Positions 14,338 to 53,150 of a DNA stretch of 64,000 nt are shown here, piece after piece (positions within the stretch are counted from its first letter, which is position 1; each line of letters starts with the position of its first letter). The DNA comes from Eledone cirrhosa (Eukaryota). The notes beneath the pieces are model-generated. The model did no database searches, was not told where the DNA came from, and was given only the letters and a program-made list of their open reading frames with translations. Made by a program: the position numbers and the translations under genes. The stretch is from positions 18,228,001 through 18,292,000 of the forward strand of contig OZ024755.1 in NCBI GenBank assembly GCA_964016885.1. The letters are read 5' to 3'.

Positions 14338-15125
14338 GTATGACAGTTGAAGGACATCTCTGGATATCAGCTGGTTGTTGGATCAAATCAAACCTAAAGA
14401 GATAAGAATAAAAGTCATATATTTTCTGAAAACTCCAGAAAAGTAAAAGACATGTCGATCCCTTTGTGGTTATAATAAGACTGAGAAAGTCATGAATGTC
14501 ACCACTTCAATTAATCTTCGAAAACAGAAAGTAGGTTTTTATATATTAATTTTCATTATATTTTTGTATCAGTTGAGGTTAACTTTGCCTTTTATCCTTA
14601 CGGGGTCGATAAAATAAAGTACCAGTAATGAACTGGGTAATTGCTGGCCTTGTGCCAAAAAGTGGAAACAATTATATTTTTGTATCAGTCTCCTTGACCT
14701 AGTGGTAGGTGTTAGAGACGGTGGTGATACTGGTCTGGGGTTCAATCTTCGCCAGAATCTATATAAAATAAGGGGGTTTTGCCAATTTTTTTCATCTTTT
14801 TTCAATGCAAACGTAAAAAAAAATCTATGGTAAAATGAAAAAAAATTATCTACTTTTTTACATTTTAAAAAGTTGAAAAAAATTAGTAAAACCCCCTTAT
14901 TTTAAGTAGATCCTAGCCAATATCAAAACCGAGACCTGGATCTCCACCGTCTCTCATACCTCCTACTAGGCCACAGAAACAGCTACAAAAATACTATGAA
15001 AATTAATATTGATAAACCTACTTTTTATTTTGGAAGCTTAATTGAAGTGGTATCGTTCATGCTTTTCTTAGTGTTGCTGTTACTAGAAAGGGTCGACCTT
15101 GTTTTTCATAATCCAGATTATTTCA
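14338..15125. repeat. Inverted-repeat module type A, copy 1 (convergent tRNA-like cassettes 14682-14760 + and 14906-14986 -)
   Basis: Arms share gtcgac, catgaa(c/t)g.cacc, aaagtaggttt.ta.atattaatttt and the cassette core in mirror orientation. Confidence 0.85.
14574..14670 (+). mobile_element. 5'-truncated SINE family A with 19-bp target-site duplication
   Basis: attatatttttgtatcagt at 14555-14573 and again at 14671-14689. Confidence 0.85.
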
Positions 15126-16599
15126 TTAAGTGTTATGTTAATACCAGTAACGTCATTACACACTGAATATCTAAGCCCTAAACAATTATTAAAGCCTCAA
15201 TTTCTTATTTTTAAATGATATCACTCCACCTTTGTGTTCTCGGTGAAAATCCTGTCGATATTAATTTACAATTTTAGAGCAGAAAAATAGAGTATCTTAT
15301 GGGTTCAATTTAATCGATCGGCTTCTCCCCGTCAATCACTTGACATTTGCCAAACTAAGACATACAAACTATATATATATATATAAGATCAAAAGATGGT
15401 TAAAAGAGTTCCATGTATTTTATTATGTGCATTTCAAAAACAAATATCATCATGGGATGATATTTGCGTTCTCATCAGATAAAATAGGGAGACATGATAT
15501 GAAGCTTAAAAAACACTTGCGAGCAGTGAAGTGTTAAATTAAGATGCGGTGAAAACAAACAAAAAATATTATTACTAAATAATTATAATTTCTTACGTTC
15601 ATTAATTCTTTTTCTTAATTTTATTGCAAACATAATTTATTTAAAATTTGTCGTATAAAATATTTTTCATTAAAACATTATATATAAATATATATATATA
15701 TATATTTATATATATATATATATATAAAATTAAGAAAAAGAATTAATGAACGTAAGAAATTATAATTATTTAGTAATAATATTTGTTATTGTTTGTTTTC
15801 ACTGCATTAACTGCTGAGTGCAACTTTTATTTTTCTTACTATTTTCTACTGTAAATGGCGGCTGAGACAATATTGGATTATTACTTAGGTTTACTGGATA
15901 ATGGCGCTTCCTTATTGTATTATTTTACAGACAGTGGACATCGGAACATCCCTCTATATACCTGGGATAAATGTAAGGAGCAGTGTTTTTTTATACATAG
16001 GACAATGATCTCTTATATTTACATTTTCTTCCCCCAATACTGTATTTTGAAGTCCTTTCATTATTTAAAATATGTCTATCGTGTCACTCGTTTGATTTAT
16101 CTCCTCCAAAGTTGTAATTCTAAGTGTTTTTCCTTGGAAAAGTCTATATCTGGAATAGTGTACTAATATTTAAATAATTTAACTCCCCTAAGACTTATCT
16201 CCTCTAAATTTTCAAAAATTACTCATCTTCCTTCACAAGACAGATCCCTAAGTAATTCTAGTATTTTCTGTTTTCTTCTTCTCTGGGTTCCTTCAAGAGC
16301 TTCACCGTTTTCAGGATGTCTGTTGACCATAGCGCAAAACAATATTCTCAGTGGTATCACATATTCATCTAGTGTTTTAGATTTTCCGGTATTTATCTAG
16401 ACAAAAGAAGGTTTTATTATTTCTATTATCCGTCTCGCTGTTTAGCTTCAGCATGGTCAGGCAGCTTTCAATTCATATATATTCACAATTCTTTGGGGAG
16501 GGGTATAATAAGCACCTTTTTTGGTCAACATTCGATACCAAAACATGCTTCCGTTTTCTAACTTCGTTGTACGAATATAAGAGTATATAAGAATGAAAG

Positions 16600-17097
16600 T
16601 ATATATATACAAGCCATGTGTATATATATATATATATATATACAAATATATATATATATATACAAGCCATGTATGTATATATATATATATAGGAACAAGT
16701 AAGACCCCGACGGCTGAGCTCATATATATATATATATACAAGCCATGTATATATATATATATATATACATATATACAAGCCATGTGTATATATATATATA
16801 TATATACATATATATATACATATATACAAGCCATGTATATATATATATATATATACAAGCCATGTATATATATATATATATATATACAAGCCATGTATAT
16901 ATGTGTATATATATATATACACATACAGGCCATCTATATATGTGTGTATATATATATATATATATATATATATATATATATATATATATACATACAAGCC
17001 ATCTATATATGTGTGTATATATATATATATATATATACACATACAAGCCATCTATATATGTGTGTATATATATATATATATATATATATATATATAC
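16600..17097. repeat. Minisatellite (TA)n-CAAGCCATG; a second block at 17783-18000
   Basis: acaagccatg/acaagccatc repeated with variable (TA)n spacers. Confidence 0.9.
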
Positions 17098-17283
17098 GTT
17101 ATTCCGGGTTGAATCGGAGGTAACCACAGTAAGTAAGGTACTCAATACATTGCAGAGTATAAAAGTTTTAATATAGATGAGATTCTACAGGACTAGAACT
17201 GTTTCATTCTTTAGAAATCATCAGGATTCCTGATGATTTCTAAAGAATGAAACAGTTCTAGTCCTGTAGAATCTCATCTATAT
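17098..17283. mobile_element. Penelope-like insert with a 56-bp-arm palindrome (17171-17283)
   Basis: …aatcatcagga-t-tcctgatgatt…, with a CTGATGA…GAAA core on both strands. Confidence 0.7.
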
Positions 17284-17998
17284 ATATATATATATATATA
17301 TATATATGTAATGGAAAAATTTGAACAGGGACAAAACAGAGAGGCAGTACAACGAATGTTTATTAATTTCACGCTCTGGAGAGTGGGGTGTACATACAAG
17401 CCATCTATATATATATATATATATATATATATATATATATAAAAGAGAGTATTGAAGTTTGCTTGAAGCATTGTGGAATGATGAGGTAAATTTCTTTAAG
17501 TCGTTTGGAAGCCTCGACAATGCAAATGAGTAAATCTCCGGGTAACAAGATCCGGTGGTGGAGAGAGAGATGTAAGTGGGTGTACGTTGAGAAAGGTGGC
17601 GTGTATAAGACGTGTAGAGGAATGAAGGAAAGGATAAAATAAAAATAACAACACGAGAGAGAGTTACCTTGGGAGAGATTTAATTGTCCCTATATATTTC
17701 GGATTCACATCCATCAACTGGGTTTTTTTTCCGGGGTGGGGGAAAGGTGCGAAACGCGTCCTCCGCTGTTCGTTGTTTTGAATATATATATACAAGCCAT
17801 GTATATATATATATATATATACAAGCCATGTATGTATATATATACAAGCCATGTATGTATATATATACAAGCCATGTATGTATATATATACAAGCCATGT
17901 ATGTATATATATACAAGCCATGTATGTATATATATATACAAGCCATGTATATATATATATATATATATATATACACAAGCCATGTATATATATATATA

Positions 17999-50382: not shown

Positions 50383-51352
50383 CATATATATATATATATA
50401 TATATATAGCTGCATATTAACCCTTCCCCAACTTTTAGTCGTTAAAAAAATGAGGCGCCTTTCTACCTCAAAATGTGAGACACACGTATATTTATACACA
50501 AAATATCTACCCCGATGTCAAAACATATTTACGTTTTACACATTTACTGTACGAATATAATAAAAATATATATGTATACACTAGCCATGTATAAATATAG
50601 CTGCATATTAACTCTTCTCAAATACATTTTTTTTTTTCAAAATAAGGTGAGTTTTATATCGCTAAAAATCCTGTACGAGGTCTCCGTAAGCGTTCCATTT
50701 CAATAAATTTTTCATTTCGATTTTCAGTAGATTGTATTGCCGTTGAAGATGCAGTCAATTGTCCTTCTAATAAAAATCAACTTGCCTCAGAATTGTTCGT
50801 ATTTTGTGTCTCGTTCATTCCATGTTTAAGGTAATAAAATATCGTTAATTCAAAATGTTGTTCTAATGTAATAAAAGTTACTTTTCAAAATCTGTCGCAT
50901 TCATTCTTTCTCTTCTGTATTGTTATCTAATGAATAAATTTAAAAAAAAAAAAAAATGTGAGCGGTAGAAATAACACGACCTTCTTTCACCGCTGCAGGG
51001 AGCTTACTGGCAGTGTGTCGAGCAGGAATGGTAAGTAACTGACAACGGGGAACATCACGTGCTATTTATAGGCCACGTTGATTGGAAAGACGTACCAACC
51101 CAGGATATACACCTTATTCCTTCTTAAAATTCCCCGAGTTCCTTTCTTTCCTGAATAAACAGTGAGATAAAGTGACAGGGTTCAATCCCTGCCAAGAATT
51201 TCAGTAGGTTTATTTTTTAACGAGGGACTGTATGTCGTCGTTGCTTTAAAGTGTATTCAGGGTTTCATTCTTGAGTTGGGATTGTAGAATTACTTTATTT
51301 AATTGTAAACAAACAAAGCAGGATGTATATAGCTTCGTTGTACGTTCAAATT

Positions 51353-52283
51353 ACACACACACACACACACATATATATATATACATACATATATATACAT
51401 ACATATATATACATATATATATACATATATATATATACATATATATATATATATACATACATATATATACATACATATATATACATACATATATATACAT
51501 ACATATATATACATATATATATACATACATATATATACATATATATATACATATATATATATATACACATATATATATATATATATATATATATATACAT
51601 ATATATATATATATATATATACATATATATATATATATATATACATATATATATACATATATATATATATATATACATATATATATATATATATATATAC
51701 ATATATATATATATATATATATACATATATATATATATATATATACATATATATATATATATACATATATATATATATATATATATATATATACATATAT
51801 ATATATACATATATATATATATATACATATATATATATATATACATATATATATATACATATATATATATATATATATACATATATACATATATATATAC
51901 ATATATACATATATATATATATATACATATATATATATACATATATATATATATACATATATATATATATATATACATATATATATATATATACATATAT
52001 ATATATACATATATATATATATATATACATATATATATATATATATATATATATACATATATACATATATATATATATACATATATATATATACATATAT
52101 ATATATATACATATATATATATACATATATATATATACATATATATATATACATATATATATATATACATATATATATATACATATATATATATACATAT
52201 ATATATATACATATATATATATACATATATATATACATATATATATATATATATATATACATACATATATATACATATATATA
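51353..52283. repeat. (TA)n/(CA) microsatellite, ~930 bp
   Basis: Seen directly. Confidence 0.97.
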
Positions 52284-52379
52284 AGCCTACCTTATCTAGC
52301 AACTACACACCCAATCCTATTCTCCATATATTTTATCTCTCTCTCTCTCTCTATATATATATATAAAGGTTTGAGCGGT

Positions 52380-53150
52380 GGCAAAATTGAAGAGTCACTA
52401 TTGCTAAGCACATTAATTTAAGATCAAATCTAACACACAGACACACACACATTTATGCCTTTAATTGTCATGTATAACAGTTGAAGAACATCACTGCAGA
52501 TCAGTTGGTTATAGGTTCAAACCAACCCTAGATAGATAAAAAAAAACAAGGGTTTTATATTGTATTGAAGCCCCAGAAAAATAAAAGCCAATGTCGACCC
52601 TTTTGTAGCATTAACAAGACTGAGAAAGCCATGAATGCCACAACATCAAGTTTGCTTCCAAATGAAAAGTAGGTTTATAAATATTAATTTTCAGTATATT
52701 TTTGTAGCCATTTCGGTGGCCTAGTGGTAGGTATTATAGAAGGTGGAGAAACTTGTCCGGTGTTCAATCTCAGTGTGTCAGATTTTAATTTTTTATTTTT
52801 TATTTGACCTCTTATAAAATAAAAAAAAATGTAAGACACAGAGATTGAACCACAGACCAGGATCTCCACCGTCTCTAATACCTACCACTAGGCTACCGAA
52901 ATAGCTACAAATTTACGCTGAAAATTAATGTTTATAAACCTACTTTTTATTTCCAGCTAAACATTGATGCAATGACGTTCATGCCTTTCCTAGTGTTATT
53001 ATTAATAGAAAGGGTCGACCCTATCTTTAATCCTTCTGGTGCTTTGATAAAGTAAATCTGAAGTTTGGTTCTCATTGCTTTAGGGCTGTTGTGAACCTAC
53101 AATGACTGTGTCTACAATAATTTTCACTAACTTCAAATCTGTCATACCAA
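52380..53150. repeat. Last inverted-repeat module (cassettes 52704-52775 +, 52838-52908 -)
   Basis: The minus cassette core is almost identical to 45038-45118. The upstream motif aaaagtaggtttataaatattaatttt is at 52665-52691. Confidence 0.85.

Follow-up and report, generated by a model that had tools for sequence, protein, structure and literature searches.

Primate snaR, in the sections of the source used here, is a lineage-restricted short Pol III RNA whose genes share flanks and were carried into tandem arrays by segmental duplication; it has an Alu (7SL) origin and retroposed relatives with TSDs, and its expression and NF90 binding have been shown (PMC3045588). Vault RNAs are 80–140 nt Pol III products with internal A and B boxes, upstream elements and clustered genes (RF00006; PMC7904556, in part). 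The U6/L1 and Magnaporthe WEIRD chimeras carry a small RNA 5′ of a SINE or LINE within one TSD (excerpts of PMC11838501 and PMC2104539), and the TRIMp3 elements Helenus, Ajax and Cassandra are described in the section used as having direct LTRs, PBS/PPT and 4–5-bp TSDs (PMC10886601).

The window analysed here is a 64,000-nucleotide stretch of the Eledone cirrhosa genome and contains tRNA-like cassettes that apparently belong to an undescribed, snaR-like Pol III gene family. The literature searched does not describe the family, which may exist as an unclassified repeat in Repbase or Dfam, both outside the scope of the search. As in the parts of the snaR account used, the cassettes share flanks, form tandem arrays and have retroposed copies with TSDs and a retroposon- or tRNA-type ancestry. 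Unlike snaR as described there, they have a tRNA/SINE-like head, a conserved upstream TATA element and a facing-pair layout, they number in the thousands with one subfamily riding a DNA transposon, and they are known here from sequence alone. They resemble the vault RNAs of those excerpts in having A and B boxes with upstream elements and in being clustered, but are not among the RF00006 matches and have a terminal stem that is paired in only 57%. The fusion of a cassette core 5′ of a SINE is similar to the U6/L1 and WEIRD chimeras as a trace of an abundant cellular RNA, although the chimeras of those excerpts involve other RNAs and other retroelements. Like TRIMp3 in the section used, the family includes a non-autonomous mobile element with a small-RNA-derived Pol III promoter; unlike TRIMp3, this subfamily is a DNA transposon with 14-bp TIRs, 8-bp TSDs and two inward-facing cassettes, and a Helenus-type identity was rejected because the cassettes are inverted and the ends are TIRs, not direct LTRs. 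The A and B boxes lie at tRNA spacing as in tRNA-derived SINEs, and one SINE head in the genome shares the A-box region, a weak likeness (17.6 bits) among loci picked for that A box. Unlike these SINEs, and as proposed in the preliminary description, the cassettes have no body, tail or TSD at array copies and keep a shared 5′ flank; this flank carries the upstream promoter. Their origin may be tRNA-Glu-like.

Cassettes and convergent modules in the window

A profile built from the window identifies 28 full cassettes (E 1e-24 to 1e-37; the reversed-window control gives one match, E 0.5), and a covariance model recovers the same 28 at 67–110 bits, with nothing else in the window above 13 bits. 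They constitute the ten convergent modules reported previously, in which ten + cassettes (+1 at 14682, 19497, 22880, 26182, 29596, 32950, 36379, 39728, 45038 and 52704) face 18 minus cassettes around T/A runs (Table 1). One to three minus cassettes had been seen per module, and the count is either one or three. Tandem repetition of a 6.7-kb block means that only 12 of the 28 cassettes are distinct. Every cassette combines A and B boxes at tRNA spacing with an upstream motif, a 28-nt TATA element and a T-run; T4 lies 79–145 nt from +1 in 28/28, although several copies have damaged boxes. The +1 of the reference cassette (45038) was set from the 5′ ends of retrocopies. Two distant cores reported as nearly identical, 45038 (+) and 52908 (−), differ at five of 71 bases. 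The modules had also been described as large inverted repeats; the convergent arrangement holds, but the arms are only 67–80% identical, with longest perfect runs of 12–23 nt. A further eroded minus cassette, proposed downstream of type A modules, does not survive: the segment at 23903–23986 scores 8.4 bits (E 0.95) and is not significant. Three sequencing runs of one sample resemble DNA contigs and confirm only the sequence and the multi-copy cassettes.

Table 1. Positions of cassettes, modules and duplicated blocks in the window.
Feature	Position	Strand	Remarks
Upstream motif, CATGAACGCCACCACATC-type	44964..44981	+	about -74 to -57; identity 0.83-0.89
28-nt TATA element (AAAGTAGGTTTATA..TAT.AATTTTCA)	45000..45027	+	TATA ~28 nt before +1
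Reference cassette	45038..45150	+	+1 G 45038; A box 45051-45061; B box 45095-45103; T4 45147-45150; 5′ hairpin GTCTC/GAGAC
Facing partner of reference cassette, including TATA element	45177..45316	-	+1 45277; B box with one mismatch
Module 1	14523..15029	.	+ cassette 14682, with a SINE fragment inserted between it and its TATA element (14524-14550), facing - cassette 14986, whose B box is decayed
Module type B	19454..20077	.	one + (19497) facing three - (19717, 19873, 20034)
Module type B, repeats	26139-26762, 32907-33530, 39685-40306		
Module type A	22837..23223	.	+ (22880) facing - (23180), the latter with a poly-G expansion 3′ of the A box
Module type A, repeats	29553-29938, 36336-36727		
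Module 10	52661..52951	.	+ (52704) facing - (52908); T-run 79 nt away in both
Recent 6.7-kb tandem duplication	18501..41380	+	~3.4 copies, 97-98% identity, one A and one B module each
Non-coding flank of old ~3.4-kb array unit	43850..44730	+	64-84% shared with arrays on other contigs; patchy deletions; GT-donor-like site not retained
Other non-coding flank of ~3.4-kb unit	45353..46360	+	ATGGCG 'ORF' broken in most copies

The cassettes have spread as multi-copy genes together with their flanks by segmental duplication, in agreement with the earlier proposal of spread by DNA duplication, as seen in the 6.7-kb block and in flanks common to arrays on other contigs. Core identity among array paralogues (0.73–0.81) is only slightly higher than that of the flanks (0.71–0.78), which across copies are full of deletions. 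No shared long ORF was found in the array units, and a protein-coding gene was rejected on the broken ATGGCG frame and the loss of the GT-donor-like site.

Promoter elements, fold and known RNA classes

Among 27 subfamily majority sequences the mean pairwise identity is 0.90 for the TATA element, 0.84 for the B box, 0.83 for the upstream motif, 0.78 for the A box, 0.71 for the mid-body, 0.69 for the 5′ stem, 0.53 and 0.45 for the spacers and 0.46/0.32 for the 3′ tail, with segments placed by fuzzy matching, which inflates identity, and three ill-fitting clusters left out. The ranking agrees in array paralogues and in a per-column analysis. By these comparisons the TATA element is the best-conserved part of the family, and promoter elements and their spacing lead its conservation. 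The elements have a fixed order (TATA element, 10–11 nt, +1, A box, B box, T-run) and a near-invariant tRNA-type spacing with the A box at +14 and the B box at +58: +1 to A box is 13 nt in 24 of the 27 subfamilies, A box to mid-body 20 nt in 26, and mid-body to B box 24 nt in 25. The upstream motif is present in window-type and hAT-borne subfamilies and absent from multi-B-box subfamilies; in one subfamily the B boxes are doubled or tripled. U6 of the same genome has its TATA at the same distance as the cassettes, but a U6-type PSE was rejected, as the upstream regions of four U6 loci share TATA alone with them. The position of the best-conserved part upstream of the core was overlooked in the first reading.

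Support for the two-hairpin fold proposed previously varies among copies: some fold strongly (z −4.2, −4.4 and −4.2), whereas for others, with z > −1 in six of 12, the fold is weak or lacking. RNAalifold finds no consensus base pairs across the cassettes, and the covariation that had been suggested as a check is lacking in the aligned cassettes, with paired cells at 74.9% against 75.2% in shuffles, and nine pairs with two-sided change against 13.8. Conserved structure is therefore unsupported. In the 5′ stem, what look like exchanges of C-G for T-A fall on CpG.

None of the known classes compared accommodates the cassettes. For tRNA, ARAGORN reports no genes, RF00005 has no match on the cassettes, and the folds are two hairpins with no cloverleaf; a standard-D-loop pattern meant to recover a parent tRNA returned 34 SINE heads and no tRNA, and the upstream element is missing from 16 native tRNA-like loci. 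A window-wide Rfam scan yields only microsatellite-driven miRNA matches, the scan of the cassette pair (44600–45600) yields nothing, including RF00006 at E<=10, and SRP has no match in the Rfam scans; the Rfam/Infernal comparison advised earlier thus places no Rfam family on the cassettes. Vault RNA was rejected because the RF00006 matches lie elsewhere in the genome (49 candidates scored), where a separate vault-RNA-like cluster exceeds the Rfam cut-off. An H/ACA snoRNA was rejected on a TGGA hinge (alignment A1) and the absence of a snoRNA match on the cassettes, and a SINE on the missing body, the upstream element in all window copies and the restriction of TSDs to promoter-less retrocopies.

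Copies elsewhere in the genome and retrocopies

Genome-wide, the TATA element has 436 exact matches and 3,986 with <=2 mismatches (control 0), and the family copy number of ~4,000 is taken from these pattern matches. The contexts are 3.4-kb tandem arrays as in the window, arrays with duplicated B boxes, and the cargo of a MITE that we take to be hAT-type from its short TIRs and 8-bp TSD. Among 20 loci chosen by the MITE right end, 12 contain cassettes and 10 have both ends; the 8-bp flanks of the latter are identical in four, match at 7/8 in three and 6/8 in one, and are unlike in two. With a 14-bp TIR, an 8-bp TSD and two inward-facing cassettes, this dispersed subfamily is a MITE, and no transposase was recognised by eye among the ORFs inside its elements. 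The hAT-borne cores diverge by 8–10%, like transposon sequence (5.5–15%), while the + TATA element diverges by 2.6% (15/579). The preliminary description had foreseen that a dispersed family with shared flanks would count against it; such a family exists in the MITE-borne subfamily, but the window copies lie outside it, since the MITE ends were not found in the window or in window-type arrays. In a tree that omits 4 of 55 clusters, the arrays form a clade of greater depth and diversity than the two MITE-borne cassettes, as capture from the host would produce. The same tree places + and − partners together by lineage in three clades: multi-B-box (100/99), alternating-array (94/75) and window-type (93/91). 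Other sequence collections give no viral matches and one metagenome match, to bacterial coding DNA, which fails the model.

The TATA/upstream element is kept in 71 of 99 dispersed cores, 65 of which have a facing partner, and is missing from 28, of which 24 have none. Of 23 retrocopies analysed (L214, a tandem core repeat, was dropped before the 5′-end count), 11 begin <=1 nt from +1, with no start upstream of it (binomial p roughly 9e-9), and six have TSDs of 15–25 nt versus 0/23 swapped-flank controls. In L202, L218, L222, L235 and L212 the T-run joins directly to a SINE, and L235 consists of +1-to-T5 plus SINE within one 17-nt TSD. The nearest relatives are window-type for 10 and hAT-type for 13, and the reference cassette is the closest sampled promoter-bearing copy to seven. 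Given the 5′ ends at +1, the TSDs and the T-run/SINE joins, members of the family were therefore likely Pol III-transcribed in the germ line, and their RNA likely existed there as a discrete product of ~90 nt, in the range 80–110 nt. The retrocopies speak for past germ-line RNA of some members, not for present expression of the 28 cassettes in the window.

Proposed function and alternative explanations

We consider it fairly probable that this is a large tRNA-like family making discrete 80–110-nt RNAs, likely by Pol III, that are predicted protein-binding decoys and not tRNAs, templates for SINEs or precursors of siRNAs. The earlier suggestion of a Pol III small-RNA gene family is further supported by the promoter geometry, the copy number and retrocopies extending from +1 to the T-run. 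In tRNA, vault and U6 promoters, TFIIIC binds the A and B boxes and TFIIIB the TATA element; the same factors would occupy the cassettes, with Pol III starting at the G of GTAG and stopping at the first T4. Germ-line RNAs appear to have been reverse-transcribed, alone or fused with SINE/LINE RNA, and the family has multiplied through tandem and segmental duplications and through capture into the hAT-type MITE, after which many copies decayed in a birth-and-death process. Conservation of the promoter and the 5′ two-thirds, against a drifting 3′ end and drifting exact pairing, would point to selection for high output. In this, the weakest step, the selected product would be a short RNA with a loose fold and an oligo-U end, which may bind La and double-strand-RNA-binding proteins, by analogy with snaR-A and NF90.

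Conservation concentrated in promoter elements, RNA pairing without covariation, the duplicated and triplicated B boxes and the low divergence of the hAT-borne + TATA element would also be expected if the DNA itself mattered, with facing TFIIIC/TFIIIB sites serving the arrays and the MITE as barriers in chromatin or as seeds of open chromatin, and RNA a by-product; tDNAs have such barrier activity. This is unlikely, as the mid-body and 5′ stem are better conserved than the spacers though not known promoter elements, and all 28 window copies retain terminators. About as unlikely is a selfish or neutral repeat, a transcribed Pol III promoter cassette multiplied by DNA transposons and tandem duplication with nothing in the host relying on it, its arrays being satellite-like remains. 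Cassettes at the MITE loci decay neutrally, and the window copies derive from a recent block duplication, with some damaged and deletion-rich flanks around them; the missing MITE ends, the deeper array clade and a promoter spacing constant across contexts argue otherwise. The neutral relic considered previously accordingly describes many single copies, with hAT-borne cores decaying like their flanks, but not the family promoter. Very improbable is the former suggestion of long hairpin RNA for Dicer or ADAR, which would arise from the inverted modules by read-through or Pol II transcription as at an hpRNA/endo-siRNA locus. The convergent layout is nearly universal and partners cluster by lineage, as arm-to-arm homogenisation would give, but the arms are imperfect and have terminators between them, each cassette has its own T-run, paired Pol III products are same-sense and not complementary, and retrocopies end at the T-run.

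On the preferred reading of Pol III-made decoy RNAs, an abundant lineage-specific RNA from thousands of facing pairs could titrate dsRNA-binding or RNAi proteins, whether in neurons or in the germ line, and have been captured by a transposon as an anti-silencing RNA, for which adenovirus VA RNA is the model; this extension is somewhat less likely than either the DNA-based or the selfish explanation. If true, it would mean that a cut-and-paste transposon is equipped with Pol III genes; the literature searched yielded no DNA transposon with two promoter-complete Pol III genes. RNA editing is heaviest in the coleoid cephalopod lineage, and an abundant hairpin RNA in a coleoid would bear on the control of ADAR and RNAi. 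A small-RNA class of ~4,000 loci would escape Rfam, ARAGORN, and 18–30-nt and poly(A) libraries, and the exact predicted RNA ends make it testable by one northern blot. The retrocopies offer a genome-only proof of principle for finding Pol III RNAs not previously known.

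Cassettes and their putative promoters in the window

In the window, a search profile seeded on the 45-kb cassette copy and then extended detects 28 full cassettes. They form ten convergent modules, with one plus cassette facing one or three minus cassettes in each (10 plus and 18 minus in total); the reversed window gave a single chance match. A covariance model (R1) built on 46 family members, window copies by design among them, scores these 28 at 67–110 bits with a gap down to 13 bits. The ten modules of convergent tRNA-like cassettes in the preliminary description stand. The additional eroded minus cassette that it placed near 23.9 kb falls short of significance (E = 0.95), and neither ARAGORN nor the Rfam scan that it proposed reports anything on the window cassettes. 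Because a 6.7-kb block is tandemly repeated, the 28 copies reduce to 12 distinct cassettes.

The cassettes begin (+1) at the G of GTAG, with the A box at +14, the B box at +58 and the first T4 79–145 nt from +1 in all 28 window copies. Before +1 they carry a motif spanning roughly −74 to −57 and an AT-rich 28-nt element whose TATA is about 28 nt before +1, with a variable spacer of 10–11 nt between element and +1. U6 genes in the same genome have a TATA at equal distance (four loci compared) and share no further upstream motif with the cassettes at these loci; the 28-nt element is absent from 16 tRNA-like loci of the genome. Given the established Pol III promoter types, TATA plus A and B boxes is thus read as a putative hybrid Pol III promoter. 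Vault RNA passages of PMC7904556 back this reading.

Genomic contexts of the cassette family

Searching the species' own genome at the DNA level returned 2,481 initial candidates, of which 40 were scored. The 28-nt element matches the genome exactly at 436 sites and, with two mismatches allowed, at 3,986 (controls: 0), and a cassette lies downstream of it in 20 loci chosen by the element, a few with deletions. Four contexts were seen: old, window-like tandem units of ~3.4 kb with flanks 62–90% identical (contigs C15, C18, C22, C24, and C26); arrays of alternating plus and minus cassettes with a period of 410 bp; arrays, often close to contig ends, of cassettes with two or three B-box segments; and dispersed pairs within a non-autonomous DNA transposon (a hAT-type MITE) with a 14-bp TIR and 8-bp TSD. 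The right end of this transposon has 294 exact genomic matches, with cassettes within 5.8 kb in 12 of 20 loci picked by it; neither of its ends was found in the window. In a tree of 51 representatives, with 22 of 48 inner branches open, plus and minus partners cluster by context for the first three contexts, and the two MITE-borne cassettes are not sisters.

The MITE family, which carries a facing Pol III cassette pair, often lies within TA repeats, and no transposase was seen in its loci. At another locus (L214) the 5′ part of the core has turned into a short tandem repeat (period ~44 nt). Helitron-like helicase ORF pieces adjoin multi-B-box arrays in 3/20 loci, which may be chance in such repeat-dense regions.

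Coordinates of features in the window and at fetched genomic loci (L-numbers; C, contigs of genome G000)
Feature	Location	Remarks
Tandem repeat, 6.7 kb	window 18501-41380	identity 97-98%
Long near-perfect palindromes	window 18020-18300 and 17160-17280	18020-18300 contains CTGATGAG, a hammerhead core word
AAATGGCG word	window 46225-46235; paralogues 15855, 20500, 24360, 43326	
Hammerhead HH9-like matches, weak	window 57352-57422 and 57880-57950	28 bits, cut-off 52
Broken LINE-like endonuclease/RT reading frames	window 59654-60929	recognised by eye
Helitron-like helicase ORF pieces	L068:8052-9999, L072:370-1363, L081:4171-5453	recognised by eye
hAT-type MITE family	L241-L260, L162-L181	0.9-4.5 kb
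Vault-RNA-like genes (14, clustered)	L114-L121 (G000:C3:221.18-221.25 Mb)	34-43 bits, Rfam RF00006 cut-off 34
U6 genes (~30, in tandem)	L089-L098 (G000:C19:31.78-31.84 Mb)	period 1.8 kb
tRNA-like genes (ten, dispersed)	L053, L055-L063	six contigs

Conservation, fold and retrocopies

Element spacing is almost fixed across 27 subfamily majorities. Mean identity, with the motif values inflated by fuzzy placement and three clusters skipped, falls from 0.90 in the TATA element through the B box (0.84), upstream motif (0.83), A box (0.78) and mid-body (0.71) to the 5′ stem (0.69), compared with 0.53 and 0.45 in the spacers and 0.46/0.32 in the tail. Array paralogues, whose alignments are not independent of one another, give 0.82–0.93 for promoter elements, 0.73–0.81 for cores, 0.71–0.78 for flanks and 0.41–0.56 for spacers. 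MITE-borne cores (20 copies) are 8–10% off the column majority, compared with transposon divergence of 5.5% in seven right arms and 15% in the left flank, and the plus TATA element alone is below transposon level (15/579). This transposon-like core divergence speaks against function of single MITE copies. The two-hairpin fold described previously is ancestral, yet unsupported by covariation: 74.9% of cells are paired versus 75.2% in shuffles, two-sided changes are rarer than in shuffles, and alifold returns no consensus pairs for the cassettes.

Exact matches to a 22-nt core pattern number 315 in the genome, and 99 cores were examined among the first 100 matches listed (contigs C1–C12). The TATA element is kept in 71, of which 65 face a partner, and is absent from 28, of which four have one. 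The 24 solos lacking both were reduced to 23 by removing one tandem core repeat. In 11 the 5′ end lies at most one base from +1 (in one case as judged by eye), the other 12 are 5′-truncated inside the RNA, and none starts upstream of +1 (rough binomial p 9e-9); TSDs of 15–25 nt are present in six of the 23 (one within a TATC microsatellite) and in 0/23 swapped-flank controls. Solos without a TSD could be deletion products, although the pile-up of 5′ ends at +1 is then hard to explain. The retrocopies are evidence that members of the family were once transcribed. Five solos run from the T-run into a SINE that also occurs in the window. The clearest retrocopy (L235) extends from +1 to T5 and then into the SINE, inside a 17-nt TSD. 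Its anatomy is that of the U6/L1 and WEIRD/Mg-SINE chimeras described in PMC11838501 and PMC2104539. With a core pattern biased toward both types, the closest relatives are of window or window type for 10/23 solos (window copies for seven) and of MITE type for 13/23; no solo is close enough to any window copy to name its source. Sequencing runs X1–X3 behave like DNA of one sample.

Interpretation and other features

For the observed geometry, copy number, modes of spread and retrocopy ends we favour, with some reservation, a Pol III gene family. Pol III would transcribe each cassette from +1 to the T-run, facing cassettes would share a two-way terminator region, and the RNA is predicted to be loosely folded and to serve as a decoy for La and for proteins that bind double-stranded RNA, the decoy step being the weak part. 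It is doubtful that the cassettes act at the DNA level as a barrier, and equally so that they are a selfish or neutral repeat. A hairpin RNA feeding Dicer or ADAR, as suggested in the preliminary description, is very improbable, as the module arms are just 67–80% identical with perfect runs of 12–23 nt.

Identities as tRNA, SINE, vault RNA, H/ACA RNA or TRIMp3 (the last as described in PMC10886601) fail the tests applied. The family appears to work like primate snaR as described in PMC3045588, yet is not snaR. No description of it was found in the literature searched, repeat libraries lying outside that search; passages of the giant squid genome paper mention only large numbers of tRNA-derived loci. 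A cephalopod source, presumed in the preliminary description, is also what the SINE landscape would suggest.

The vault-RNA-like genes have paired ends and T-runs and are unrelated to the cassettes; vault RNAs are rarely described outside deuterostomes. The ten dispersed tRNA-like genes have near-identical flanks and differing anticodons (Val, Ala, Thr, Asp; ARAGORN) and probably represent one tRNA that a mobile element carries. The reading frame after AAATGGCG, a YY1-site-like word, is not retained; the word itself is, in nearly all array units. Both HH9-like matches fall inside a 530-bp direct repeat (97% identity), possibly a Penelope/retrozyme-type element.
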